Positions 3,094-47,846 of a DNA stretch of 64,000 bases are shown piece by piece. Within the stretch, counting starts at the first letter, position 1, and each line of letters begins with the position of its first letter. The stretch is from an uncultured Candidatus Saccharibacteria bacterium (GTDB taxonomy: Bacteria; Patescibacteriota; Minisyncoccia; Phycocordibacterales; PALSA-1337). The stretch covers positions 23,613 through 87,612 of the forward strand of contig CAZLQL010000002.1 of assembly GCA_964561875.1 (NCBI GenBank), given 5' to 3'. The notes beneath the pieces were generated by a model, which ran no database searches, was not told the origin of the DNA, and saw only the letters and a list, made by a program, of their open reading frames with translations. Position numbers and translations under genes: made by a program.

Positions 3094-4509
3094 ATGTTCT
3101 CACAGCACCACAAACATGTAATTGCAGTAGCTATCCTTATGGTAGCTTCTTATTCATTGCCTCAAGTAAAACAGGCTTTAGCAGTTACAAATATAGATAT
3201 GGCAAGTTGTCCGATAGGGTATATATGTGAACCAAAGGTAAATACTTCATATTCTACTGTGACACCAAAAGTTGAACAGTCTGCTCCAACTGCTGTTCCA
3301 ATAATAGTGGCAAGTCAGAAAGAGGTAGGTCAGAAGTATTGTTATACATTTAATCAAAACCTAGATTCAGATAATCTAGGTAATGGTATATCTATAGAAA
3401 AGAGTAGTGGTGTATCTCTTTTCAATCTTCAAACAATTTTGCAAGATAAAGAAAATATAAATGTAGATAATAATGAGAGAGATATAAAAAATCCAAAATT
3501 TGGTAATTCAACAAAATCTGCTGTAATAGCTTTTCAAAAGAAGTATGGTATTCCTGCAATAGGGGTTGTAGGACCAATGACTCGTGCAAAATTAAATAAG
3601 ATATATGGTTGTGGTAATGATAATGTTTTATTAAATAAAGTTTTGCCAACTACTACACTATCAAATAGTGCAAATAATGTAGGACCACAAAATAAAACTC
3701 TACCAGTATCTGAAAAAGCAAAATATTATTCAAATACATCTATAAGTAATGTAAATATCATAGATTCAAAGACATATTCTAAACTTGTTGATGGATCAGT
3801 GGTTACAAAGGGAAATACATATAGAATAACTTGGGATGCATCAGAAGTCCCTGAGAGTGCAAGATTTACTATAATATTTCAGTCACCAACAGATCCAAGT
3901 GTTTATGGTGTTATGAGAACTGGTTTGATCGATGCAAGTAAGAGATATTATGATTGGAAAGTTGAAAGTACATTCCAAGATAATGTAAATATAAGAATAA
4001 TAGTAGAGGTAGGTAGTTTGAGAGCGTATTCACCATTAATAAAAATATCATCGCCTACTGCTAACAGTACTATATTGGATGCGGGATTGGACTCAACTGC
4101 AAATCCTAAAACTTCAGAATATAAGAAGACTGAAGTTGAAAAATCTCCCTCATCTATATCATTGATACCAGGTATCAAAACTATGTATCCAAGTTCAGGT
4201 GCACCAGGTACAAAAGTAACACTTACACTTTCAAATCCAAAAAGGGAAATAGTGTCTTATGGCGATTTTAACTTCGGAAATTTTGGCTTACCAAATTTCA
4301 CAAATACAAATAATGAAGTTATAACATTTACAGTTCCAAACGATGCAAAAGCAGGAATTTATGAAGTTGTTTGGTTTAGTTCAACAGATATGTATGTAAC
4401 AAAATTCAATGTTATTTCACAATCTGCTCCTGTATCTAAAGCTGGTGGATGGCATTATGTAGCGTCAGTTTTCGACACAGTCATTACTCTCGCTTCTATA
4501 GTTATGTAA
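3094..4509 (+). CDS. secreted protein with a putative peptidoglycan-binding (PG_binding_1-like) segment and a C-terminal Ig-like (IPT/TIG-like) domain
   Basis: Signal-peptide-like N-terminus. The motif AVIAFQKKYGIPAIGVVGPMTRAKL resembles PG_binding_1. The C-terminal ~90 aa (SGAPGTKVTLT...VVWFSS) is paralogous to the C-terminus of ORF 46026-47846. Confidence 0.55.
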   Translation: MFSQHHKHVIAVAILMVASYSLPQVKQALAVTNIDMASCPIGYICEPKVNTSYSTVTPKVEQSAPTAVPIIVASQKEVGQKYCYTFNQNLDSDNLGNGISIEKSSGVSLFNLQTILQDKENINVDNNERDIKNPKFGNSTKSAVIAFQKKYGIPAIGVVGPMTRAKLNKIYGCGNDNVLLNKVLPTTTLSNSANNVGPQNKTLPVSEKAKYYSNTSISNVNIIDSKTYSKLVDGSVVTKGNTYRITWDASEVPESARFTIIFQSPTDPSVYGVMRTGLIDASKRYYDWKVESTFQDNVNIRIIVEVGSLRAYSPLIKISSPTANSTILDAGLDSTANPKTSEYKKTEVEKSPSSISLIPGIKTMYPSSGAPGTKVTLTLSNPKREIVSYGDFNFGNFGLPNFTNTNNEVITFTVPNDAKAGIYEVVWFSSTDMYVTKFNVISQSAPVSKAGGWHYVASVFDTVITLASIVM

Positions 4510-28980: not shown

Positions 28981-29445
28981 CTATCCTAATATGTGACGTT
29001 CGATATCGAGCCAGCTTTCGACTCGAGTGGTGCTTGAGAGCTCCGCTTGCCATTTTTCAGCATCTTCCTGATTCGCTTGGAAAAGTAATCGATGGGTAAT
29101 AAAAGGCATATGACTCATGACTTCCGGTCGGTCGTCAATGAAATGAGTGATTCCAAGACGATGACAGATCGGAGCTTTGTCACGACGCTCTGCGCAGAAA
29201 TGGAGGTGGTCTGTGGCGATTCCGACAGACTGGAGAAATCGAGTCGAGCGTAGCCAAGCCTCAGCTCTGACTTGTTGTTCAGGAGTTACTCGTGAGATGA
29301 TATGCACCCTCTCACCGAATTTCTCTGATACAAGCCTTCGAATGACTCGATCTGCATCTGGGAGTAGAACTTGCATACCGTTTACACGGTGCACAATGGT
29401 TCTTCCCAGATCGATACCAAGAGCATTTTCAGTTTTTATTTCCAT
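28981..29445 (-). CDS. HAD-superfamily-like small protein (degenerate motif I), GC-rich
   Basis: GIDLGRTIV ... HFIDDRPE resembles HAD motifs I and IV, but the second Asp is replaced. Overlaps the upstream gene by 17 bp. Confidence 0.4.
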   Translation of the reverse strand: MEIKTENALGIDLGRTIVHRVNGMQVLLPDADRVIRRLVSEKFGERVHIISRVTPEQQVRAEAWLRSTRFLQSVGIATDHLHFCAERRDKAPICHRLGITHFIDDRPEVMSHMPFITHRLLFQANQEDAEKWQAELSSTTRVESWLDIERHILG

Positions 29446-30313
29446 ACTTTTTTATCCAAGTTCTGATTTCTGGCAGGTGATGCAGGTGGGTGACAAGTGT
29501 GCAGTAAGGATCGTGAGTTATTTTTCGAATGAGTACAGGGTCAAATTCCTCGATCGTTTCTCCTACGTGCAGGAAGCACAATCCAAGTTGTTTCGATAGA
29601 CCGAGCGGGGCTATCAGGTCCCAAGGTGTCTCGAAGTGTGGTCTAACAATCACTGCTCCAACTTCACCCTTCCAGACCTTGGCAAATACCGCTCCGATAC
29701 TTCCAGCAGCTACCTCAGCGTTCTTGAAGAGACCGCTATCAGTTAGGTCTACCATTCTCTGGACAATCTCTGGGTATGCAGTAGGTAGATCCTTGAGAAC
29801 AACATATTGTTTCTTGAGTGGTCGCTTTATATCCGGCTTGAGTAAAAGTCTCTTACCGAAACGAAGTCGAGTCCCCACATCTCTAGTTCCTTTAGCGAAA
29901 CCATAGATTTCTTCGGTATTGATATCTCCAATGTAAGTTGCAATCACTTTGCCATCACAGACGAGGCCCAACATAGTGGTAACTCCTTGCGAGGTATTGA
30001 GTGCGTAGGATTTGGTTCCATCGACCGGGTCGACAGTAAACCAGATATCGTGTTTGCTGTCAGTGCAAGGAATATCCAATTCCTTTTCCTCAGCAATGAT
30101 ACCGAAAGTAGGGAAGCGTTTTCGAAGTTCCCGGATATACATCTGTTGAGCTTTGAGATCACCACTGGTGACCACATCCTCTTTGATGCCATCGTAGGCC
30201 CTCTTGTCGTGGATAACTGTTTTGTGCGATTCGGTACGGATGATAGCGATCGCTTTTCTGACGATGGCGATCATATCATTCCGAATTCGTCTCATATTTG
30301 GTATATTTTTCAT
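29429..30313 (-). CDS. inositol monophosphatase / CysQ family phosphatase, GC-rich
   Basis: WFTVDPVDGTKSY (DPxDGT) plus EE and WD motifs; 294 aa. Confidence 0.75.
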   Translation of the reverse strand: MKNIPNMRRIRNDMIAIVRKAIAIIRTESHKTVIHDKRAYDGIKEDVVTSGDLKAQQMYIRELRKRFPTFGIIAEEKELDIPCTDSKHDIWFTVDPVDGTKSYALNTSQGVTTMLGLVCDGKVIATYIGDINTEEIYGFAKGTRDVGTRLRFGKRLLLKPDIKRPLKKQYVVLKDLPTAYPEIVQRMVDLTDSGLFKNAEVAAGSIGAVFAKVWKGEVGAVIVRPHFETPWDLIAPLGLSKQLGLCFLHVGETIEEFDPVLIRKITHDPYCTLVTHLHHLPEIRTWIKKYGNKN

Positions 30314-30470
30314 TCAATGTCCTTTCTGTTTCTACTATATGTTACTATCTTTAAAATTGCTGTGTTTGTATAAAATCTTGTATAGGTTTACACTTATTTG
30401 TATAAGTTTATTGAAAAATATAGGTAAATATGGTAGATTAGTTGTATAAAATAATTACAACTTATTATAT

Positions 30471-31190
30471 ATGTCAAAACACATATTAGAAAAAATTGGT
30501 TTTCTGGGTCATGAAAAAGAAATCTATCTTGCTCTTTTAGGTGTTGGTTCGTCTTCAGTTTCTGAATTAGTTCGTAAAACAGGTATTCATCGTCCTACGG
30601 TTTACAAAACACTAGCACTTCTTATTGATAAGGGTCTTGTACGCATCATGCCAGTTGGGAAATATAAAAAATATGTTGCTGAGTCGCCAGAACATTTAGA
30701 AACAATTTTTAAAGAACTTGAAGCCGATTTTACTTCAGAGATATTTGATCTAAAGGATATGTATGAAAGTAGAGATAAAAAGCCACGAATTACTTTTGTA
30801 GAAGGGTCAAAGGGTATTACTCAAGTCTTTTCTGATGTGGTTCATCGTCTCAAAAAAGGTGAAATGTACTTACGATATTCTTCACAAAAGGAATTGGATG
30901 TAAAAACATTTGTACCAAAGGACTATCGAGAGGTGAGAGATCGAAAAGGACTTGAACGCCTTATCATTACCAATGAACCGACCAAGAAACGTCATAGTAA
31001 AAAATTAGGTAGGGAAATCAAAGTTATTCCTCCTGATTTTGATTTGTTTGAATACAATATTTCACAGATTATTTATGCTGATAGAGTAGCTTTTATTGAT
31101 TACAATACAAAAACGTCAATCACCATAGAAAATCCTATTTTTGCTGAATTTCAAAGAAAGATTTTTAAGTTGTTATTCAAGAAGCTTTAA
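30471..31190 (+). CDS. TrmB-like HTH transcriptional regulator
   Basis: N-terminal EKEIYLALLGVGSSSVSELVRKTGIHRPTVYKTLALLIDKGLV is winged-helix TrmB-like. Confidence 0.6.
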   Translation: MSKHILEKIGFLGHEKEIYLALLGVGSSSVSELVRKTGIHRPTVYKTLALLIDKGLVRIMPVGKYKKYVAESPEHLETIFKELEADFTSEIFDLKDMYESRDKKPRITFVEGSKGITQVFSDVVHRLKKGEMYLRYSSQKELDVKTFVPKDYREVRDRKGLERLIITNEPTKKRHSKKLGREIKVIPPDFDLFEYNISQIIYADRVAFIDYNTKTSITIENPIFAEFQRKIFKLLFKKL

Positions 31191-31195
31191 AATGA

Positions 31196-31221
31196 GTCAA
31201 AACAAAACAAATCTTGCGAGT
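31196..31221. repeat. hairpin repeat family, copy 1 (gtcaaaacaaaac...tcttgcgagt...tgtttg)
   Basis: Shares an exact 14-nt block and an exact 10-nt block with 32648-32690. Forms a stem-loop with a TTGCGAG loop. Confidence 0.55.
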
Positions 31222-31243
31222 TGTTTGTTCATAGAGGTAAGTA
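31222..31243. repeat. 22-bp direct repeat, right copy
   Basis: Exact copy of 28846-28867. In the giant gene's frame it would read ...IEVSNVRWL*. Confidence 0.85.
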
Positions 31244-31326
31244 ATGTGAGGTGGTTATAAAGTAATAACATTACAAATTATTTATCGATAAATTGATAAT
31301 AATTTATTATGTGATAAACTTTTTTT

Positions 31327-32019
31327 ATGTTTGATAATCCTACTTCTATTAGATATTTAGACGATAATACTATAAACCAGAGTACTAATAATGACTCGAT
31401 AAGAGCAAAATCCGCAGTTTTTGCAAGAAAAAGAAAAGTTGTATCGTATTATTTCGGTACACCTTTGCAGTCTGCTACTCACATAGCAGATGCTAATTTG
31501 GATCAATTTATAACAATACAAGGTGATAAAATTAATTATTTACAACCACCACGTCCAATAGTAAAAGGAGGTCTGAATGTTTCTTTTGGCCTAGGAGGGA
31601 ATTCACCACGTCATGCATGGAAGATTCCTTCAGTAATTTACGTTACCAAGAAATACATACTTATAACCCCATCAGAAGAACAGCTAAATGCTTCAAAGTT
31701 TATATACGGTATTAGTATTGCTATGACTTTCTTATTCCTACTATTAACAATACCTTTCACGTTTATTTTCGGTCCTATTTTCCTCATATTTTCTCTTTTA
31801 TGTATATCGTTACCTATCATCAAATCCTACCTCTTCTTTTTTAAGAAAAGTTACATATCTGTAGCCCCTATTGAAGTAATAAAAAATATAAATGTAGATG
31901 AAAAGACGATTACTGTTGATGGATTTTTTAATACTGGAATTCCATCATTCTTAAAATACAAAGTATCTGCTGAATTATACGTAGGAGACAATATTTCTTT
32001 TTTTAGAGACAATATTTAA
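31327..32019 (+). CDS. hypothetical membrane protein
   Basis: Two TM helices; AT-rich and native-like. Confidence 0.4.
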   Translation: MFDNPTSIRYLDDNTINQSTNNDSIRAKSAVFARKRKVVSYYFGTPLQSATHIADANLDQFITIQGDKINYLQPPRPIVKGGLNVSFGLGGNSPRHAWKIPSVIYVTKKYILITPSEEQLNASKFIYGISIAMTFLFLLLTIPFTFIFGPIFLIFSLLCISLPIIKSYLFFFKKSYISVAPIEVIKNINVDEKTITVDGFFNTGIPSFLKYKVSAELYVGDNISFFRDNI

Positions 32020-32202
32020 ATTAATAGCTTCCGGTACAGTAGCTATTGACATATAGATTTTACTATGATATATCCATAAAGTAAGGTAAGTTCTTTGAAA
32101 GGTGTGTAGTTGAGTACGGAATAAGGGAAATAATTGACTTGCTGGCAATCGCTATGCGGATTAAATTCCTTTACTGTACTCAATACAAGAGAGAAACACA
32201 TC

Positions 32203-32436
32203 ATGAAAAAATTCGAAAAAAAATTGAAGGACGCCCTTAAGAAAATTGAGGGCAAGTCAGTCAGTCTTAGTGGCTCGAGCAACTGCATTCGCATTGTGCT
32301 CAAAGGTGGCAAAGAATACTGGGGAACGGTGAAAGAAGTCTGCAGTGACTCGTTCACGGTCTCGGTCTCGTATACGGGTGGCGGTCGTGAAAACATCGTC
32401 GTGCGTATGAGGGAAGTTGCTTCTTTCAGCGAGTGA
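32203..32436 (+). CDS. small GC-rich hypothetical protein (77 aa)
   Basis: MKKFEKKLKD... reads as a coherent ORF. GC is much higher than the flanks. It is followed by a hairpin terminator. The antisense ORF 32043-32462 is judged spurious. Confidence 0.4.
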   Translation: MKKFEKKLKDALKKIEGKSVSLSGSSNCIRIVLKGGKEYWGTVKEVCSDSFTVSVSYTGGGRENIVVRMREVASFSE

Positions 32437-32460
32437 ACCCTAAAATCCAAAATCCTTAAC

Positions 32461-32495
32461 ACACCGCATGGTTAGCCCAGCGGTGTTTACTTTTG
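32461..32495 (+). terminator. hairpin terminator, second copy of the hairpin family seen at 13866-13892
   Basis: acaccgcatggttagcccagcggtgt followed by ttacttttgc. Confidence 0.5.
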
Positions 32496-32647
32496 CTTAA
32501 ATATTCAAGTCTTTTGATATAATTTACTTTTATAGAATAGTTTTAAATAATGGCGAGAAAAACGTTGTAGTGGAAGACACTCTGGTGAATATCAAGGGTG
32601 CTTATACAGACATTTTACGACTTTCAACTCCCCAAATAGCTTCATCA

Positions 32648-32690
32648 GTCAAAACAAAACCACTCTTGCGAGTGGTCTGTTTTGTCTGTG
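32648..32690. repeat. hairpin repeat family, copy 2
   Basis: gtcaaaacaaaaccactcttgcgagtggtctgttttg forms a ~15-bp stem; related to 31196-31221. Confidence 0.55.
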
Positions 32691-32941
32691 GACACATACC
32701 GAAATACATCGAACCGCCTAAAAGACTATCTTTCTCGGTTCTGGCACTACTATCAAACTAGCCCTGATTTGCAAAAAGTCCTTGCAACAGCATGATAATC
32801 CAGTCCTGAAGTGGTCACAATAAGGGTATTGAATTCTTGTATTGCATTTCTGTACTGGCGCGTAATTTTTTTAAAAACAGATTATCCTGTAATTACATAC
32901 AAAAACGGTGAGTGATATTTTTATTGTTCACTTTATATTAG

Positions 32942-32970
32942 TTGACATAAAACTTTGCTGGATTTAGACT
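32942..32970 (+). promoter_or_regulatory. sigma70-like promoter TTGACA-N17-TAGACT upstream of the GHKL ATPase gene
   Basis: ttgacataaaactttgctggatttagact. A 10-bp palindrome tcgatatcga (33007-33016) and a hairpin (33054-33075) lie in the 5' leader. Confidence 0.4.
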
Positions 32971-33086
32971 ATTAGAGTCCTTGGTGAAGTATTGGTATCG
33001 CTAGTCGATATCGATCACAGACACTAATACAAATCTCTAATTGTATTTTATCTGCAAAACACCTCGCCAAGGGTGTTTATTAGTTT

Positions 33087-34631
33087 TTGGTATCTAGTTG
33101 GATATCGAAAATAGCAAAAATTATTATGTTTATAAAAAATCACCCTAACGCAGCAAAACTCCTCTCCTCGTTGCGTAATACGGGATATGACAGCTATGCT
33201 GCTGTTGAGGACATTATTGATAATTCTATCGACGCTGATGCTCGAAGAATTAAGATCGGTATTAGTATTGTCGGAAAAGAGCCCCGCGTTACAATTGCTG
33301 ACGATGGATCAGGAATGACGAAAGAAATTCTTGATGAGGCTTTGAAGTTGGGATCAGAAACAGAAAAAGATGAGATGTCTGATCTTGGTAAATATGGCAT
33401 GGGTCTTTGTACTGCCTCAATCTCGATGGCGAAAAGACTTAAGGTTATTACTCGAAAAGTAGATGGTGGATATTGGTCAAGTGTCCAAGATCTCGATGAA
33501 GTCGTGAAAGCAAACGATTTTATTAAGGAGTTGCAAGAATCAGACAATGATGACATTGCTCTCTTTAAAGAATTGGTAGAGAGCGATCATGGAACCCTTG
33601 TTATCTTGAGCAAAATTGATCGCCTGTCAAACACAAATGTTTCTATTTTTGCGACTACTCTTTCAAAAGAAATCGGTCGTATATACAGAAAATTCATTGC
33701 AGCCGGTATTGAGTTCAGAGTAAATGATAAGAAGGTTGAAGGCATTGATCCCCTAATGCTTGATGTTGAAGGTACACAGGTTTATTCTGACGAAGAATAT
33801 GAGGTGCCATCACACAAAGGAAAAGAAAAGGTTAATGTGCGAGTTGTGTTTCTGCCAAGTGTAAATGAACAGCTTGAAAAGGAGTATAAAATGAATATCT
33901 CATCTCAAGGGTTCTATATACTAAGAAATAATCGTGAGATCGCTAATGGAGTTACACTTGATGTTTTTAAGAAGCACAACGATCTTAATAGATTACGTAT
34001 CGAGCTTTCTTTCACTTCAAATCTCGATAATGAGATGGGTGTTCGTTTCACAAAAGATGGCGTATCTCCTAATCAGGCCATAAGCGATTTCCTTAAACAA
34101 GAAATCGGTGGCCAGATTGAATCAATTAGAAAAACCGTTGTAAAAAGTCGTGTGACCGACAAATCAAAAGAAATAAACCACGAGGAGTCTGCTGCAGTTA
34201 TTGCGAAGAAATCTAAATTACTCATTACTCCAGACGCAATAATTGAACGTCGATCACCAAAAATAAATAAAAATAACAAGAAAGAAAAAACGGAAAAAGA
34301 CGAAACTCGTGATCGAGTACCAAAGGAGACAAGGATTTCTTCAAGTGGCTTAGGGGCAAGGTTCGAAACCCTTTCTATGGGAAGAGAAGGTGCTCTATAT
34401 GATTGTTATCAGGAAGGTAAGGTTGTTGTGATTCAATGGAATGTAGATCACCCATTTTACGAGAAAATCGTACTCGCGAATAAAGATCGAAAAGATTTGA
34501 CGGCGGGCATAGATTTCTTGATATATGCACTTGCTTCAGCGGAGTTGAAAACAACAAATGATGATAATGTAAAAATTATTAGCCAGATAAAAACAATAAT
34601 GTCCGGAAATCTAAAATCATTACTATCTTAA
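33087..34631 (+). CDS. GHKL-superfamily (HATPase_c_3-like) ATPase, 514 aa
   Basis: N-box EDIIDNSIDA, G1 DDGSGM and G2 GKYGMGL motifs. The C-terminal 300 aa are of unknown function. Confidence 0.75.
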   Translation: MVSSWISKIAKIIMFIKNHPNAAKLLSSLRNTGYDSYAAVEDIIDNSIDADARRIKIGISIVGKEPRVTIADDGSGMTKEILDEALKLGSETEKDEMSDLGKYGMGLCTASISMAKRLKVITRKVDGGYWSSVQDLDEVVKANDFIKELQESDNDDIALFKELVESDHGTLVILSKIDRLSNTNVSIFATTLSKEIGRIYRKFIAAGIEFRVNDKKVEGIDPLMLDVEGTQVYSDEEYEVPSHKGKEKVNVRVVFLPSVNEQLEKEYKMNISSQGFYILRNNREIANGVTLDVFKKHNDLNRLRIELSFTSNLDNEMGVRFTKDGVSPNQAISDFLKQEIGGQIESIRKTVVKSRVTDKSKEINHEESAAVIAKKSKLLITPDAIIERRSPKINKNNKKEKTEKDETRDRVPKETRISSSGLGARFETLSMGREGALYDCYQEGKVVVIQWNVDHPFYEKIVLANKDRKDLTAGIDFLIYALASAELKTTNDDNVKIISQIKTIMSGNLKSLLS

Positions 34632-34689
34632 TAGTCGGTGTGAATTAGAGATTAAAAGACCGCTAGTTATCTAGTGGTTTTTTTAATAC

Positions 34690-35211
34690 ATGATTGAGTT
34701 TGTTGAAACGTCTCATGTTGTGTATAATATACATAACATGGCTACACAATCTAAAAATTTGTATAAGGCCGAAGACGTAGCAAAATATTTTATCTATCTA
34801 GGATCACAACAGGTTGTCGGCGACAACAAAGAAAGAGAGGGAGTAACAAATCTTAAACTCCAGAAGATACTTTATCTTGCTCAAGCGTATTTTCTTGCAA
34901 AAATTGGCAAGCCTCTTTTTGTTGATCCTATCGAAGCATGGGAGTTCGGTCCAGTTGTCCCAAATGTTTACCACAAGTTGAAGAGATATGGTAGTAACCC
35001 TATTATCGTCGAAAAAGATGAAAGCTCTGTGTTACCAGAAGATAAAGAAATTTTAGGTAAAGTTTGGGAAGCTTTTGGTGGCTATTCAGCTAGTCGTCTG
35101 GTTGATATTACTCACGCGCATACGCCTTGGAAAGAGGCTTATAATTCTTCGAATAAAGAAATTAGTAACAAAGCTATCGGTGAATATTATACGCCTTTGC
35201 TAAATAAATAA
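34690..35211 (+). CDS. Panacea (DUF4065, SocA-like) antitoxin-domain protein
   Basis: KLQKILYLAQAYFLAKIGKPLF...AWEFGPVVPNVY is the hallmark of this domain. Confidence 0.7.
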   Translation: MIEFVETSHVVYNIHNMATQSKNLYKAEDVAKYFIYLGSQQVVGDNKEREGVTNLKLQKILYLAQAYFLAKIGKPLFVDPIEAWEFGPVVPNVYHKLKRYGSNPIIVEKDESSVLPEDKEILGKVWEAFGGYSASRLVDITHAHTPWKEAYNSSNKEISNKAIGEYYTPLLNK

Positions 35212-35235
35212 TCCCTTGTATCGGTAAATACGGCC

Positions 35236-35637
35236 ATGGAAGAGATGATTACGCCTAGCAAGATAGATCTTAGATACGCTGAACACAAAGTCTTGTTTTT
35301 AATCTGCGACTGTTCTCTGGATAAACATTATTCATTTTGGAAACTCACGAGAGAACAAGCTGAAAAGTTTATTAAAAAACTTAGATACGTTGAGCAATTA
35401 ACGTGGTCTCAATTTTCAAATTTACCAAGAGATAGTACTGGTCCAACAGTAGAAAAGCAGAATACCGATAGTTTTAATATGATACATAATCAAAATACAT
35501 CAGCGGAAAAAATTGCTGAACAGTATTATTTTCATTTTCGAATTGAACCGAGAGGACTTTTTAGGGTTTTTGGATATCAGAAGAAACAATACTTTTGCAT
35601 AACCCATATTGATTACGAAGGAAGAATTCATCATTAA
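35236..35637 (+). CDS. small protein, candidate RelE/ParE-like toxin
   Basis: The C-terminus FRVFGYQKKQYFCITHIDYEGRIHH resembles the RelE/ParE C-terminal beta strands. It sits directly downstream of the Panacea-domain gene. Confidence 0.3.
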   Translation: MEEMITPSKIDLRYAEHKVLFLICDCSLDKHYSFWKLTREQAEKFIKKLRYVEQLTWSQFSNLPRDSTGPTVEKQNTDSFNMIHNQNTSAEKIAEQYYFHFRIEPRGLFRVFGYQKKQYFCITHIDYEGRIHH

Positions 35638-35711
35638 AAAATACACTGCGAATTCATATTTACAGAGAGATTAGAATATGTAGATAAAGAAGGTTGTCGA
35701 AGTAATAAAAA

Positions 35712-35738
35712 ACACCAGCAAAAGCTGGTATTTTTTTA
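35712..35738 (+). terminator. rho-independent terminator (accagcaaaagctggt plus T7)
   Basis: Perfect 6-bp stem, 4-nt loop and a T tract after the three-gene module. Confidence 0.7.
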
Positions 35739-35871
35739 TTACTGTGGAGATAGTCACGCAAAGTTGGAACCAACTCTATTCTTGGTTTTTTGAATCGTCT
35801 GGGCGATTATAGAAAGTAGGGAACATTGCGTATAAAAGAGAACTCCACAATAAGCAGAGCCTCTTGCGGAG

Positions 35872-36336
35872 TTATTGACCAAGATTTTTGATTCGTTCCA
35901 AGGTTTCGCGTCGTTCAATAGCTTGTCTCGTGATTTTCTGAACTACGTAAACGCATTTCCTCAGGTCAGCTTCACCCTCAGGGGTCGAACAAAGCCTCCG
36001 ATGAAGAACGTCTTTGGGAATTAGAAACGTTATATATTCCGCTAGGTCAGAAAGTGTTGCGTCTGATAAATTACGCAGCTCTTCCACCGTAAACCCTACA
36101 TCGCAGAATTCTTGCGAATCTTTTGCGACTTGAACCAGAAGCTCTTGATAGAGCTCCATTAGGTTTTCCTTCTGCCATGTTTCTAACTGATCCCAATCAT
36201 CAATATTGTCTCGATAGAGAGCAGTGACATCAGGAAGGAGGGTTGGAATGGACGCGATCTTTTTGAGCCCTATAAGCCAAGCCCTAACTTCTTCTTTGGT
36301 TTGCATGTTTAAAACCTTTGGTTGGATTTTTACCAA
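35872..36336 (-). CDS. GC-rich hypothetical protein adjacent to the ssrA 3' end
   Basis: 154-aa ORF with much higher GC than the genome background. Confidence 0.4.
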   Translation of the reverse strand: MVKIQPKVLNMQTKEEVRAWLIGLKKIASIPTLLPDVTALYRDNIDDWDQLETWQKENLMELYQELLVQVAKDSQEFCDVGFTVEELRNLSDATLSDLAEYITFLIPKDVLHRRLCSTPEGEADLRKCVYVVQKITRQAIERRETLERIKNLGQ

Positions 36337-36389
36337 AAAAAGCTGCTATTAAATATGATATCATATCTAGTAATAAATGTCAAATCTGT

Positions 36390-36787
36390 GGAGATGCTGG
36401 GAGTTGAACCCAGGTGCAGATGAAATCTTATACTGATTCTACATTGTATAGAATGCTTTTGCGTCTATCTATCGACAGACTATTTAACCTTTATACTTTA
36501 AAGCAAACAAAATATATAAAAGCGATTCCCAAGAGATTTGAACTATAAACAGGGAAGAGAATATAGTTCTAGTTTAATTTATATCAATCCACCACTTCTC
36601 TAAACAAAGGAGTGACGACCGTCGCTCGAGCCTAAGCTAAAGCGAAAGCAAGATTTGTACTTCCAAAAGGAGATACAACTGCCTTTGCAACTGATTTTGC
36701 AGTTACGATTTCCGTCAGATTAAAGAGTTAACGGTGCTCTACAATGCACAATATGAAGTACCTCAACTGTCGAGGCCTTTCATCCCC
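36390..36787 (-). ncRNA. ssrA: tmRNA (transfer-messenger RNA)
   Basis: On the minus strand the 5' end reads GGGGATGAAAGGCCTCGAC and the 3' end reads CTGGGTTCAACTCCCAGCATCTCCA. The acceptor stem GGGGATG/CATCTCC pairs. The internal tag ORF ends ...GSTNLAFALA*. It lies next to smpB on the same strand. Confidence 0.7.
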
Positions 36788-36830: not shown

Positions 36831-37277
36831 TTATAAAGAAAGTTCTCTTCGCATATCGCGATCTGAGTCTCTCTTTTTAATATCTTCTCTTTTATCAAAT
36901 TTCTTTTTTCCTTTGACAATAGCGATTTCTACCTTTATTTTTCCTGATTTATTATATATCAAAATAGGCACTATTGTCAATCCCTTCTTTTGTTCTACTC
37001 CTGCGAGTTGTGAAATCTGAGCCTTATTTAACAAGAGTTTTCTATGTCTTTTTGGATCATATTCGCCTGAGGTATTCTTTTCTTGAAAAGGAGGGATTTC
37101 ACTATTCATAAGAAAGGCTTCACCACCTCTAATAGTCACATATGAACCTAGTATTGAACCTTGTCTCTTTCGCAAGCTCTTTACTTCTGTACCTAGGAGT
37201 TCTATTCCAGCTTCAAAACCCTCGACTATGTCGTAGTTCATTTTTGCCTTTTTGTTTTCTATAAGCGTTTCATTCAT
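36831..37277 (-). CDS. smpB: SsrA-binding protein
   Basis: GTEVKSLR...GGEAFL...KRHRKLLLNK...KGKKKFDKRED. Confidence 0.9.
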   Translation of the reverse strand: MNETLIENKKAKMNYDIVEGFEAGIELLGTEVKSLRKRQGSILGSYVTIRGGEAFLMNSEIPPFQEKNTSGEYDPKRHRKLLLNKAQISQLAGVEQKKGLTIVPILIYNKSGKIKVEIAIVKGKKKFDKREDIKKRDSDRDMRRELSL

Positions 37278-37321: not shown

Positions 37322-39259
37322 ATGAAAGAAACATCACATATAAAACCACCACAAAATAACAATAATAAAGGTAATAATAAAAAAGGTAAAACACCTAGAA
37401 GATTCGGAATATTAAACTCGTTAATGTTCGGTCTTATAATTTTGTTTTTATTGAGTGGATTGTATTCTGCAATAGTAGAGGGTGTATCTAGTACTCCAGT
37501 TATACCTATATCAGAATTGGTAAACAATATAGGTATGGGTAAGGTTAGTTCTATAACAGTAAGTGGTGATGATCTTACTGTTAACTATTCAGACAACACC
37601 ATAAAGAAATCAAAAAAAGAAACTGATTCTTCTATAACAGAAACACTTACTAGATATGGACTTACTCCAGAAAAATTGAATGCTGTAAAAATCACAGTAG
37701 AAGGACCAAGTGGATTTTGGTTTTGGGTAGGACAATTGGCACCATTTATTGGGCCAATATTCCTTCTATTGCTTATAGTTTGGTTTATGACCAGACAGGT
37801 AAAGGGTGCGGGATTACAAGCTTTTTCTTTCGGTCAATCAAAAGCACGTATTACTTTGCCAGATGATAAAAAACAAAAAGTTACTTTTAAAGACGTGGCG
37901 GGTGCAAAAGAGGCTAAACAAGAATTGTCAGAAATTGTAGATTTTTTGCGTAATCCAAAGAAGTTTCTAGAAATTGGTGCAGTAATTCCAAAAGGGATAT
38001 TGCTCATGGGAGCTCCCGGAACTGGAAAAACATTGCTTGCTCGTGCCGTAGCAGGGGAAGCTGGTGTAGCATTTTTCTCAATATCAGGTTCAGAATTTGT
38101 AGAGATGTTTGTGGGAGTAGGTGCTTCGAGAGTTAGGGATTTATTTAAAATGGCAAAAGAAGCTTCACCATCTATAATCTTTGTCGATGAAATAGATGCT
38201 GTGGGAAGAGTAAGAGGTACTGGTGTTGGAGGAGGAAATGATGAAAGAGAACAAACATTAAACCAAATCCTTGTTGAGATGGATGGTTTCGAACCAAATG
38301 AAAAGGTTATTGTTATGGCTGCCACAAATAGACCAGATGTTCTAGACCCCGCTCTACTTCGTCCAGGAAGATTTGACCGTAGAGTAACTATAGATCTACC
38401 AGATAGAAATGATAGAGAAGAAATATTGAAGATTCATTCCATAAAAAAGCCTTTGGCAGAAGATGTTGCACTGAGAGTTATTGCAGAGAGAACACCGGGT
38501 TTTTCTGGAGCTGATCTATACTCACTTATGAATGAAGGGGCAATACTTGCAGCTCGTGAAAATCGTACAAAAGTCTCACAGTATGATCTTATAAGAGCAA
38601 TAGAAAAAGTGATGCTCGGTCCTGAAAGAAAGAGTCACCTTCTTTCAAAAAAAGAAAAAGAAATAACTGCATACCATGAAGCTGGTCACGCATTAGTTGC
38701 TTCTGTTCTTCCATATGCAGATCCAGTACATAAAATATCTATAATCTCTCGTGGAAGAGCGGCTGGTTATACTCTCCATTTACCTATTGAAGATAGAAAG
38801 ATGCAATCAAAAAATGAGTTTTTAGATGATATCGCTGTTTCATTGGGTGGATATGCTGTAGAGAAAATGATGTTCGGTGATGTTACTACAGGTCCATCAA
38901 ATGATCTTCAAGTTTCAACTGCACTCGCACGAGACATGGTTACAAAATATGGTATGTCAGATAAAATAGGTGCTCTTGCTCTAGAAGGATCAGGCGGAAG
39001 GGCAATGTTTGGAAAGGGTATAGAAGATAAAGAATATTCAGAAAAAGTAAGTGCAGATATAGATGCTGAAGTATCAAAAATCATGTCAGAAGGTATGGCT
39101 AAAGCAAATGAGACTATAGTAAAATATAAAAATGCACTTGATGCTATAGCAAAAAGATTGATTGATGTGGAAACTATAGAAAGAGAGGAATATGAATCAA
39201 TAATTATTTCACATGGTATAACACCAAAACGAAAACTGGATATTGAACATCAATCATGA
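37322..39259 (+). CDS. ftsH: ATP-dependent zinc metalloprotease FtsH
   Basis: AAA Walker A GAPGTGKT and the HEAGH zinc motif. Confidence 0.95.
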   Translation: MKETSHIKPPQNNNNKGNNKKGKTPRRFGILNSLMFGLIILFLLSGLYSAIVEGVSSTPVIPISELVNNIGMGKVSSITVSGDDLTVNYSDNTIKKSKKETDSSITETLTRYGLTPEKLNAVKITVEGPSGFWFWVGQLAPFIGPIFLLLLIVWFMTRQVKGAGLQAFSFGQSKARITLPDDKKQKVTFKDVAGAKEAKQELSEIVDFLRNPKKFLEIGAVIPKGILLMGAPGTGKTLLARAVAGEAGVAFFSISGSEFVEMFVGVGASRVRDLFKMAKEASPSIIFVDEIDAVGRVRGTGVGGGNDEREQTLNQILVEMDGFEPNEKVIVMAATNRPDVLDPALLRPGRFDRRVTIDLPDRNDREEILKIHSIKKPLAEDVALRVIAERTPGFSGADLYSLMNEGAILAARENRTKVSQYDLIRAIEKVMLGPERKSHLLSKKEKEITAYHEAGHALVASVLPYADPVHKISIISRGRAAGYTLHLPIEDRKMQSKNEFLDDIAVSLGGYAVEKMMFGDVTTGPSNDLQVSTALARDMVTKYGMSDKIGALALEGSGGRAMFGKGIEDKEYSEKVSADIDAEVSKIMSEGMAKANETIVKYKNALDAIAKRLIDVETIEREEYESIIISHGITPKRKLDIEHQS

Positions 39260-39294
39260 TATAAAATAGGGGTATAAATAAAATATACCCATAT

Positions 39295-39368
39295 GCGCGT
39301 GTAGCTCAGTTGGTTAGAGCATCGAGCTTATACCTCGAGGGTCCCTGGTTCGAGTCCAGGCACGCGCA
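39295..39368 (+). tRNA. tRNA-Ile with anticodon UAU
   Basis: Cloverleaf with acceptor GCGCGTG/CACGCGC, anticodon stem TCGAG/CTCGA, loop CTTATAC and T-loop TTCGAGT. Confidence 0.85.
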
Positions 39369-39395
39369 CCGAGCGTAGTATATAAAAAAGAAAAA

Positions 39396-39421
39396 CCGCG
39401 TCCAAAAGGGCGTGGTTTTTT
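39396..39421. terminator. bidirectional terminator hairpin
   Basis: A5-ccgcgtcc-aaaa-gggcgtgg-T6. Confidence 0.65.
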
Positions 39422-43641: not shown

Positions 43642-43731
43642 GGAACCGTGGTGGAGTGGTTTAACATACCTCTTTGCTAAAGAGGCGAGCCCTTTAAAGG
43701 CTCCGAGGGTTCGAATCCCTCCGGTTCCGCA
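43642..43731 (+). tRNA. tRNA-Ser (anticodon GCU), class II with a long variable arm
   Basis: Acceptor GGAACCG/CGGTTCC, anticodon loop TTGCTAA, variable arm GAGCC-TTTAAA-GGCTC and T-arm GAGGG-TTCGAAT-CCCTC. Confidence 0.85.
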
Positions 43732-46025: not shown

Positions 46026-47846
46026 TTGATATATAATATATGTATGTATCAAAATAAAATTAATCTCGAATCTTTTTTTATTACTAAATATATCCTTGTC
46101 ATTTTTTTATTAATCCTATCTATATTTACCTTTGCAAACGCTCAAACAAATAATATTGGTGCTATGCAGTTGAGTCTTGTATCAAACCACGAGGATTCTA
46201 GTGTTCAAATAAAGATAGATATGACTAAACTTAATTATAAAGACTATTTAAGTCTAGGTGTTTATTGTGTTAAAGAAAATGGAAAAACTGATTTTGCTGT
46301 AAAGAATATATCTCCAGTTTGTGGAAATGTTTTAAATAATATTGAAAATAAGATATATACAACAACAGTCTCAAATCTAAATCCAAGTAGTGAATATGAA
46401 TTTTGTCTAAATGGTACAAGTTCAAAATACACATCAACAGGGAATTTTGAATGTGCAAAGATAAATACACAGTCAAAAAAGTCTTCAGTTGCAATGATAT
46501 ATATAAATTATGATGTTTCTCAAAATACTAGGAATTTGATTAAAAGATATGAAGATAGTATTCGTCTTTCAAATCCAGACGTAAGTATTGTCGAATATTC
46601 ACCACAACAAACCGTATCTAGCAGTGAGCTTTTGGAAAAATTGCGTAATACATACAAGAGTTCAAATTTAAAGTATTTATTAATGATAGGATTTGATCTA
46701 CCCGTACCTATGACTCAGGAGTCTGTATATTTTGCTGATCCTTACAGACATTTGTCTATTGATGAAGTAAATATGAAAAGAGATTTTCTGTATACATTAA
46801 ACAGTGAAATATCTATATCTGTTATAAAGGCTGAAGATGAAAAAGAAATGCAGGATTATTTCAATCGTCTTCACAGATTTTATACAGGTGAATTGAAGTT
46901 TGATAAAAAATTGTTTATTGCTGATGCAATGATACCAAGCGAATCATCGATAAACCTTTCAGATGTTCCAGCTCGATACAATCTAACCTCAACTGATTAT
47001 ATAAACGGTATAACTTCTTATTATGATTCAAAGGATATTGATATAACAAAATGGCAAAATGATTACCAAAATTTACTGTCAAAAAGTCATGAAATAACAA
47101 TAATAAACGCTCATGGTGCAACAAATTTTCATATGCCATGTAGGATGAATGCTTCAAATAATGAACAAGGATGTATCTCAAGTAGTTTTATAAAAAATAC
47201 AAAACCAAATTCTCAATTTATAATAGGTGTTTCATGTAATATAGGTAACTTCATGACCAAAGGTTCACCTATGAATGCTTATATATTTTCTGGAAATGCT
47301 TTGGCTGGATTGGGTGCTGAAGTGCCACTATGGGATCAGAATAGTTATTTAGCAAAGAATCTTTTAAAATCTTTGTCTGAAGGTGTGCGAATAGGGGATT
47401 TGTCTTTAAAAAATGGTTTGGTAGTTATAGGCGATCCATTTTTAAAGATTGGTCTTGTACAAAATTATAAATCAAAAATAGAGATTGAAGGAATAAAAAG
47501 CATGTATCCAGTTTCTGGTGCACCAGGCACAAAGGTGACTTTGACTATTTCAAACCCAGATAATATACCTATCGGTGTCGGCGATTTTAATTTTGGGTCA
47601 TATGGTTTAGTTAATTTCTCAAATTCAAACAATACAATTACTTTTAATGTTCCTAAAGATGCAAAATCTGGATATTATGATGTCGTTTGGTTCAGTTCAA
47701 AAGATTCATATAGTGTTAAATTTAATGTTGTTTCAAGTAATTCTCCTGTATCGATAAACACTTCAGATAAAGAAATGTATAAATTTGATTTCGGTAGTTT
47801 ATTATCAAATATTTCTATAGGATTCGGTAATTTGTTTAATAAGTAG
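46026..47846 (+). CDS. secreted clan-CD (C25/gingipain-like) cysteine peptidase candidate with a C-terminal Ig-like domain
   Basis: Signal peptide. His/Cys dyad context INAHGAT and GVSCNIGNF. A GDPFL motif. The C-terminal domain is paralogous to ORF 3094-4509. Confidence 0.45.
   Translation: MIYNICMYQNKINLESFFITKYILVIFLLILSIFTFANAQTNNIGAMQLSLVSNHEDSSVQIKIDMTKLNYKDYLSLGVYCVKENGKTDFAVKNISPVCGNVLNNIENKIYTTTVSNLNPSSEYEFCLNGTSSKYTSTGNFECAKINTQSKKSSVAMIYINYDVSQNTRNLIKRYEDSIRLSNPDVSIVEYSPQQTVSSSELLEKLRNTYKSSNLKYLLMIGFDLPVPMTQESVYFADPYRHLSIDEVNMKRDFLYTLNSEISISVIKAEDEKEMQDYFNRLHRFYTGELKFDKKLFIADAMIPSESSINLSDVPARYNLTSTDYINGITSYYDSKDIDITKWQNDYQNLLSKSHEITIINAHGATNFHMPCRMNASNNEQGCISSSFIKNTKPNSQFIIGVSCNIGNFMTKGSPMNAYIFSGNALAGLGAEVPLWDQNSYLAKNLLKSLSEGVRIGDLSLKNGLVVIGDPFLKIGLVQNYKSKIEIEGIKSMYPVSGAPGTKVTLTISNPDNIPIGVGDFNFGSYGLVNFSNSNNTITFNVPKDAKSGYYDVVWFSSKDSYSVKFNVVSSNSPVSINTSDKEMYKFDFGSLLSNISIGFGNLFNK

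Follow-up and report, generated by a model that had tools for sequence, protein, structure and literature searches.

A tRNA-Ile gene with an encoded UAU anticodon, linked to ftsH across Paceibacteria, and its likely role in the reading of AUA

A stretch of 64,000 nucleotides (64 kb, hereafter the window) contains a tRNA-Ile gene in which the anticodon is encoded as TAT, and this raises the question of how the genome that carries it reads the codon AUA. TilS is regarded as essential and nearly universal in bacteria; it serves as a phylogenetic marker and has been put forward as an antibacterial target, and the known exceptions are a handful of species. A tRNA with the UAU anticodon might work beside a lysidine-modified tRNA-Ile2(CAU) or in place of it. 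Following the analyses described here, we are confident, short of certainty, that the gene specifies a functional tRNA-Ile2 whose U34-A35-U36 would read AUA directly without TilS, and that it is a vertically inherited core gene of Paceibacteria linked to ftsH.

The first-pass annotation had placed a tRNA-Ile with a UAU anticodon at 39295-39368, and both the reading and the position proved correct. ARAGORN calls a tRNA-Ile (tat) and no other anticodon or isotype, the isotype name being taken by that program from the anticodon alone, and the Rfam tRNA family RF00005 matches 39295-39368 with 73.5 bits (gathering score 29, E = 3.4e-14). The gene, GCGCGTGTAGCTCAGTTGGTTAGAGCATCGAGCTTATACCTCGAGGGTCCCTGGTTCGAGTCCAGGCACGCGCACC, has a standard cloverleaf fold with the acceptor stem GCGCGUG/CACGCGC and the discriminator A73 at 39368. 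The gene continues past the discriminator with CC at 39369-39370, and the next base is G, which leaves the CCA end of the tRNA incomplete in the gene. It is one of three RNA genes that ARAGORN found in the window, together with the tmRNA and a tRNA-Ser(gct) (Table 1).

Table 1. Positions of the features discussed in the text, by locus.
Feature	Locus	Position	Strand	Basis or remark
tRNA-Ile(UAU) gene	window	39295-39370	+	ARAGORN, anticodon (tat); Rfam RF00005; covariation over 70 orthologues
Anticodon loop C32-U33-U34-A35-U36-A37-C38	window	39327-39333	+	anticodon TAT at 39329-39331
ftsH	window	37322-39259	+	translation; Pfam AAA / Peptidase_M41
Short AT-rich palindrome GGGTATAAATAAAATATACCC	window	39270-39290	.	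flagged hairpin in the 35-nt ftsH-tRNA spacer
Intrinsic terminator hairpin	window	39390-39421	+	14-bp stem, AAAA loop, A-tract before, U-tract after
smpB	window	36831-37277	-	translation; Pfam; divergent from ftsH
tmRNA	window	36388-36787	-	ARAGORN, Rfam; divergent from ftsH
tRNA-Ser(GCU)	window	43642-43730		ARAGORN, anticodon (gct)
Segment between core genes and tmRNA	window	28981-36336		GC 0.36-0.37
GHKL ATPase (HATPase_c_3)	window	33087-34631		in the 28981-36336 segment
SocA/Panacea antitoxin-domain protein	window	34690-35211		in the 28981-36336 segment
Predicted secreted protein, 471 aa	window	3094-4509		C-terminal module
Predicted secreted protein, 606 aa	window	46026-47846		C-terminal module
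tRNA-Ser(ACU)	L004	14871-14960		
tRNA-Ser(ACU)	L005	17240-17329		
tRNA-Ser(ACU)	L022	17327-17416	-	
tRNA-Ser(ACU)	L030	17638-17725		
tRNA-Ser(ACU)	L034	14396-14485	-	
tRNA-Ser(ACU)	L044	10729-10816		
tRNA-Ser(ACU)	L074	18163-18250	-	

The tRNA gene and ftsH are separated by 35 nt, counted from the ftsH stop codon, and are probably transcribed together. The palindrome in the spacer between the two may be a processing or attenuation element. The terminator hairpin follows 19 nt 3' of the tRNA gene and is unusually stable for its composition (-20.1 kcal/mol, z = -5.5; none of 200 shuffles folded equally well); it lies between convergent genes and is predicted to act, probably, in both directions. 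In other bacteria tilS-hpt is often found upstream of ftsH, the position occupied here by smpB and the tmRNA. The linkage of a tRNA-Ile(UAU) gene to ftsH, which tilS adjoins in many other bacteria, may be coincidence or something more. The window as a whole has a GC content of about 34% and is part of the core chromosome, since it carries the genes for EF-G, EF-Tu, the S10-spc ribosomal-protein cluster, SecY, a type IV pilus operon, RecG and LigA. Proteins identical to its EF-G, LigA, GatC and EF-Tu were looked for and are not on record, and FtsH gave only a Logan contig of 2.5 kb.

Two other features of the window were observed. Between the core genes and the tmRNA, the 28981-36336 segment has a slightly higher GC content and looks like an island integrated at the classical tmRNA site; in addition to the GHKL ATPase and the antitoxin-domain protein, it encodes a TrmB-type HTH regulator, an inositol-monophosphatase-family protein and several ORFs without a Pfam match. 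The two predicted secreted proteins have a near-identical C-terminal module (…MYPxSGAPGTKVTLT(L/I)SNP…GDFNFG…VVWFSS…KFNV(I/V)S), which looks like a repeated surface-protein domain.

For comparison with relatives we used the best 80 ftsH loci, with one genome per GTDB species. All 80 are from Patescibacteria (the ultra-small CPR bacteria) of the class Paceibacteria, among them Candidatus Taylorbacteria, Kaiser-, Adler-, Zambryski- and Campbellbacteria and others, and many of their records are labelled only "uncultured Candidatus Saccharibacteria". The window genome is itself a member of Paceibacteria and is Candidatus Taylorbacteria-like; one relative (L002) is 98% identical and belongs to the same species. 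A tRNA-Ile(tat) was found beside ftsH in 69 of the 80 relatives, at a distance of 1-3928 nt, and nine of the 11 relatives without an ftsH-linked copy are on contigs that end no more than 1034 nt past ftsH. Including the window, this gives 70 genes, and across the clade they are part of a conserved block in the order tmRNA - smpB - ftsH - tRNA-Ile(UAU) - (recG) - tRNA-Ser(GCU). In 44 of the 70 the tRNA and ftsH share a strand; in the other 26 the tRNA has flipped to the opposite strand with the ftsH neighbourhood kept.

Near the tRNA-Ser(GCU) of this block, a well-formed tRNA-Ser whose anticodon is encoded as ACU was found in seven Paceibacteria relatives (Table 1); it is absent from the window. 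Its loop is UUACUAA, its variable arm is long, position 73 is G, and its anticodon stem has compensatory changes. A34 outside tRNA-Arg(ACG) is very unusual in bacteria, and if this A34 were deaminated, the tRNA would misread AGA. CPR bacteria have been reported to be without the inosine system (PMC8629427).

The 70 orthologous tRNA-Ile(UAU) genes, representing 65 distinct sequences, were then aligned. C32, U33, U34, A35, U36 and A37 (CUUAUA) are invariant, as are A73, the D-stem, U8 and A9; C38 occurs in 68 of the 70. Standard pairs fill 99.8% of the cloverleaf cells, 16 of 21 pairs have changed on both sides, and all pairs of the acceptor stem and the anticodon stem co-vary. The covariation score was 0.72, against 0.17 in shuffles and no more than 0.15 when the 3' partners were slid. 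A pseudogene, which the first-pass annotation had named as a way in which its reading might fail, or a chance match is ruled out by the pairing and the compensatory changes across the 70 orthologues, together with the invariant anticodon. As judged from this conservation, the UAU anticodon is held by purifying selection across genomes of 30-58% GC and the gene is functional. With T at position 34 in 70 of 70 genes, the C34 that TilS requires as the substrate in a lysidine-type tRNA-Ile2 is not present in any of them. The 3' end is more variable: the window gene has A73-C-C-G, and the full CCA is encoded in several relatives (for example L004, L031, L038 and L043). This mixture of CCA-encoding and non-encoding genes in one clade implies a CCA-adding enzyme.

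The codon that such a tRNA would serve is abundant. The first-pass annotation had described AUA codons as frequent, and the counts bear this out, with ATA at 52.5 per 1000 codons in 70 non-overlapping ORFs of the window, making up 56% of the Ile codons and occurring in all 70 genes; AUA is the most-used Ile codon in the window genome. For ORFs of at least 150 aa, the values are 51.7 per 1000 and again 56% of Ile codons, against 46% expected from 4-fold sites. Genes for EF-G, EF-Tu and ribosomal proteins have ATA at 46.9 per 1000 codons and 59% of Ile, where 4-fold sites predict 50% (p = 0.001). In a recent paper on TilS, the 39 per 1000 of Borrelia burgdorferi is put at the "upper end" of bacterial AUA usage (PMC12514573). 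Over 77 loci (the window and relatives) the mean ATA share of Ile is 30% against 33% expected from 4-fold sites, and AUA is not avoided across the relatives. Four of them, L012 (JACRJQ010000007.1), L073, L007 and L077, are GC-rich (55-58% GC), and in these AUA makes up 22-38% of Ile codons against 13-18% expected from 4-fold sites; AUU accounts for only 3-13% in L012, L073 and L007, and for 28% in L077. In L012, the one at 58% GC, the Ile codons are divided into 38% AUA, 3% AUU and 59% AUC. This suggests that selection actively favours, in the GC-rich relatives, the cognate codon of the UAU tRNA.

Whether the UAU tRNA has taken the place of tRNA-Ile2(CAU) and TilS is a separate matter. The first-pass annotation had read the UAU anticodon as an alternative strategy for AUA, often with loss of tilS; this reading is supported, although for the loss of tilS and of tRNA-Ile2(CAU) the support is indirect. 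The presence of a UAU gene does not by itself imply the loss of TilS, because tRNA-Ile(UAU) also occurs in phage arrays whose hosts presumably have TilS. Within the 64-kb window there is no ORF of TilS size with a PP-loop (SGGxDS). A tblastn search with E. coli TilS gave no match in the window and the 80 loci, a total of 1.2 Mb in which each locus represents about 2% of a genome; the same 1.2 Mb showed no CAU tRNA either. These local results point towards replacement, but with so small a part of each genome covered they count for little. With E. coli IleRS as the query, the window and 80 loci contained no IleRS and gave one weak match, to a smaller class-I synthetase in L005.

Complete genomes were approached through Table S2 of Nakagawa et al. 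2026 (PMC13011429), which gives, for each of 95 complete Patescibacteria genomes, the number of tRNAs per amino acid according to both tRNAscan-SE and ARAGORN; the paper does not mention Ile, UAU or lysidine. ARAGORN labels all CAU tRNAs as "Met", and consequently a genome that uses lysidine is expected to show at least three "Met" and one "Ile" tRNA, and a genome that uses UAU is expected to show two "Met" and at least two "Ile". The counts are given per amino acid without anticodons, so that the following typing, in which the genomes divide cleanly, is ours: 40 of the 95 genomes are of the UAU type (at least two non-CAU Ile tRNAs and at most two CAU tRNAs), 50 are of the CAU type (one non-CAU Ile tRNA and at least three CAU tRNAs), and five are ambiguous, with at least two non-CAU Ile tRNAs and three CAU tRNAs, which fits both systems. 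By class, the UAU type accounts for 14/20 Paceibacteria, 12/12 Microgenomatia, 7/7 Dojkabacteria, 1/1 Doudnabacteria, 1/1 WWE3, 1/1 UBA1384, 2/4 ABY1 and 2/5 Gracilibacteria, and the CAU type for 34/36 Saccharimonadia, 7/7 JAEDAM01, 1/1 Kazan-3B-28, 3/5 Gracilibacteria and 5/20 Paceibacteria. Because of these per-amino-acid counts in 95 genomes, together with the 70 directly observed UAU genes, the most likely state of the window genome is that UAU has replaced tRNA-Ile2(CAU) and that TilS is thus without a substrate; we regard this as probable, with less assurance than the functional reading of the gene itself. We infer that the same replacement has occurred in much of Patescibacteria, and the switch would then affect about 40% of the complete genomes.

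The main competing explanation is that the genome has kept tilS and tRNA-Ile2(CAU), and that AUA is read by both the LAU and the UAU tRNAs. Such coexistence is documented in other bacteria and has been proposed for Lactobacillus casei and L. plantarum (PMC3575796), and within Patescibacteria the five genomes with counts for both systems and the five CAU-type Paceibacteria point in the same direction. However, 14 of the 20 complete Paceibacteria genomes have only two CAU tRNAs, which are needed for initiator and elongator Met, and no tilS was found in the window or the 80 ftsH loci. Moreover, AUA is preferred even in highly expressed genes, which is atypical where a minor lysidine tRNA is relied upon. 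We therefore consider the retention of both systems unlikely, and replacement by the UAU tRNA remains the preferred reading.

We also asked what AUA means in these genomes, using a codon-level alignment of 81 ftsH genes. At sites where the window has ATA, the relatives have 63% Ile, 13% Leu, 11% Val and 2% Met, a spectrum indistinguishable from that of ATT sites (63% Ile, 15% Leu, 14% Val and 3% Met) and unlike that of ATG sites, where 62% of the residues are Met. Because of this agreement with ATT and disagreement with ATG, AUA in ftsH corresponds to isoleucine and not to Met, and on this alignment evidence AUA means Ile. The alternative is a reassigned AUA, or a tRNA that carries an amino acid other than Ile (Met, for instance, as in mitochondria). 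It could draw on the fact that the "Ile" label of ARAGORN comes from the anticodon alone, and on BLAST searches with the tRNA body against E. coli and phage tRNAs, which did not single out Ile, with tRNA-Arg and tRNA-Lys scoring similarly. The best E. coli match was tRNA-Arg at 77%, and the phage matches included tRNA-Lys at 80% and tRNA-Ile(GAU) at 84%; we rejected these searches as an isotype test because cross-phylum tRNA similarity does not classify isotype. Against the alternative, the ftsH ATA sites align with Ile, Leu and Val as ATT sites do and interchange freely with ATT and ATC, and a search pattern built on the tRNA backbone retrieves mostly GAU and UAU tRNAs and rarely CAU. The identity elements agree in part. 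In E. coli the determinants of IleRS are A73, C4-G69, U12-A23, A37, A38 and C29-G41, and of these A73, U12-A23 and A37 are invariant in the clade and C4-G69 is present in 62 of the 65 distinct sequences, a match that again argues against another amino acid. Position 38 is C in 68 of the 70 genes, as opposed to the A38 of the E. coli set, and the 29-41 pair varies (G-C in 36 and C-G in 25, against C29-G41). Taken together, a reassignment or a different charging of this tRNA seems extremely improbable.

Under the proposed mechanism, U34 would form a Watson-Crick pair with the A of AUA, with no modification of C34 to lysidine by TilS, and the tRNA would in this way serve the commonest Ile codon of the genome. 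It would stand in for the tRNA-Ile2(CAU)/TilS pair and not work beside it. By analogy with Mycoplasma mobile, the IleRS of the clade would have to accept U34, either through Arg or Lys in place of Trp905 (E. coli numbering) or as an enzyme of the eukaryotic type. Misreading of AUG through a U34:G wobble would presumably be limited by competition with tRNA-Met, together with the context of the anticodon loop and/or the ribosome. In this context the candidate elements are the invariant C32, the near-invariant C38 and A37, which probably carries t6A; C32 and C38 may tune decoding, and C38 is not unique to the clade, being present also in phage tRNA-Ile(GAU) and tRNA-Ile(UAU) genes. Some modification of U34 might act as an alternative brake on the misreading of AUG.

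Unmodified U34 reads whole codon boxes in Mycoplasma and in organelles. It could therefore be argued that the UAU tRNA is the sole Ile tRNA, reading AUU, AUC and AUA after loss of tRNA-Ile(GAU), and indeed no tRNA-Ile(GAU) was seen in the sequence examined. However, the complete UAU-type genomes have two non-CAU Ile tRNAs and not one, four-way reading would misread AUG too, and the GC-rich relatives, heavy in AUC and almost without AUU (59% versus 3% in L012), have the usage that fits a G34 tRNA. We give this explanation almost no credence, and the preferred reading remains a tRNA-Ile(UAU) dedicated to AUA.

A pattern scan of IMG/VR identified at least 120 phage tRNA arrays with an Ile-type backbone and a CUNAUAC loop. 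Among the matches listed, 79 have G at the wobble position, 41 have T and 4 have C, and ARAGORN called at least 47 tRNA-Ile(tat) genes in these loci, so that a gene-encoded tRNA-Ile(UAU) seems to be common in phage tRNA arrays. This abundance, and the probable island beside the tmRNA with its GHKL-ATPase and Panacea-antitoxin cargo, are what a phage- or island-borne origin of the window gene could appeal to, but that origin is highly implausible given that the gene lies across smpB-ftsH from the segment, that its synteny is conserved in 69 species of 30-58% GC with stems co-varying with lineage, that there was no plasmid match and only a generic tRNA level of phage similarity, and that no ftsH was found on viral loci among the matches listed.

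TilS-independent decoding by a UAU anticodon is already a known kind of system, of the Mycoplasma mobile type. What is new here is the scale and the setting, with a tRNA-Ile(UAU) that is fixed and ftsH-linked across a class-level clade of CPR bacteria and with AUA as the majority Ile codon in the window genome. In the open-access literature we found no paper linking CPR or Patescibacteria with tilS, lysidine or UAU; it may have been remarked on in other places, or public annotations may contain it implicitly. A wider proposal can be put forward, tentatively and with more doubt than belief: a large part of the CPR (most Paceibacteria, Microgenomatia, Dojkabacteria, WWE3 and others) would be without the lysidine system and would use a UAU tRNA with a clade-specific C32/C38 loop, AUA would be preferred, the state would possibly be ancestral to the CPR, and adaptations of IleRS and the ribosome, as yet undescribed, would accompany it. 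Taniguchi et al. (PMC3575796) have proposed a pre-TilS decoding for LUCA, and the CPR state could be a survivor of it, as opposed to the result of repeated secondary losses.

If a class-level clade of the CPR, and by our typing about 40% of complete Patescibacteria genomes, does use tRNA-Ile(UAU) in place of TilS, then TilS-independent decoding of AUA would be a major bacterial strategy and not a curiosity, the clade would offer many natural replicates for studying how U34 is tolerated by IleRS and the ribosome with no misreading of AUG, and the question of ancestral versus derived UAU decoding would become directly testable. On the practical side, annotation pipelines and completeness estimates will mis-score such genomes if they count on TilS and a third CAU tRNA, and heterologous expression in E. 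coli will stall on CPR genes, in which AUA exceeds 50 per 1000 codons.

With the canonical system, in which the CAU of tRNA-Ile2 becomes LAU through lysidine formation by TilS, the window tRNA shares the role of a dedicated decoder of AUA as Ile and the elements A73, C4-G69, U12-A23 and A37. It differs in its wobble base, which is T and not C so that no lysidine is possible, in having C38 for the usual A38, and in that no TilS was found near it. A UAU tRNA-Ile is workable in bacteria, as seen from the tRNA-Ile1(G34U) suppressor of tilS in Bacillus subtilis (PMC3575796, PMC3919564), and L. casei and L. plantarum have a tRNA-Ile TAT gene together with tilS (PMC3575796), a transitional or redundant state that the counts of a few Patescibacteria genomes would fit. 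These cases keep or need TilS, or are laboratory suppressors, whereas in the window clade UAU is universal and most of the complete relatives are without a third CAU tRNA.

The phage tRNA-Ile(UAU) genes (IMG/VR loci L090-L209) have the same CUUAUAC loop and an Ile-type D-arm. They are found in arrays, with a median of 10 tRNAs, that supplement the host pool, in contrast to the single core gene with conserved synteny described here. The first-pass annotation had called an encoded UAU anticodon rare; this agrees with the older literature, in which nine species of three clades are listed (PMC3575796), and no longer holds when the Paceibacteria relatives and the phage tRNA arrays are considered. 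Eukaryotic tRNA-Ile(UAU) is also gene-encoded for AUA, but it has pseudouridine at positions 34 and 36, and the intron of its genes directs the pseudouridylation; the window gene has no intron. Some bacteria, namely Bifidobacterium and Neorickettsia, have an IleRS of the eukaryotic type (PMC3575796).

The closest comparison is with Mycoplasma mobile, which the first-pass annotation had rightly cited as a known example, its tRNA-Ile2(UAU) being TilS-independent (PMC3575796). In the survey of Taniguchi et al. 2013, nine bacterial species from three clades were without tilS and had a tRNA-Ile(TAT) gene (PMC3575796). In M. mobile the UAU is unmodified, Arg865 of IleRS stands where a Trp otherwise stacks on the wobble base, and AUG is rejected by the ribosome (PMC3575796). 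The state of U34, the IleRS residue (Arg865/Trp905) and the absence of tilS have all been shown there. Both are chromosomal bacterial tRNA-Ile genes with a genomic UAU that serve AUA in an AT-rich, reduced genome, and by analogy they would have in common the direct U34:A pairing, an IleRS that accepts U34, and misreading of AUG curbed by competition and the ribosome. Unlike the state in the Mollicutes, which is sporadic, recent and confined to few species, that of the window clade is fixed, having been found in 69 of the 80 species sampled; by our typing it extends to some 40% of complete Patescibacteria, and in the window genome it serves a codon that makes up the majority of Ile codons.
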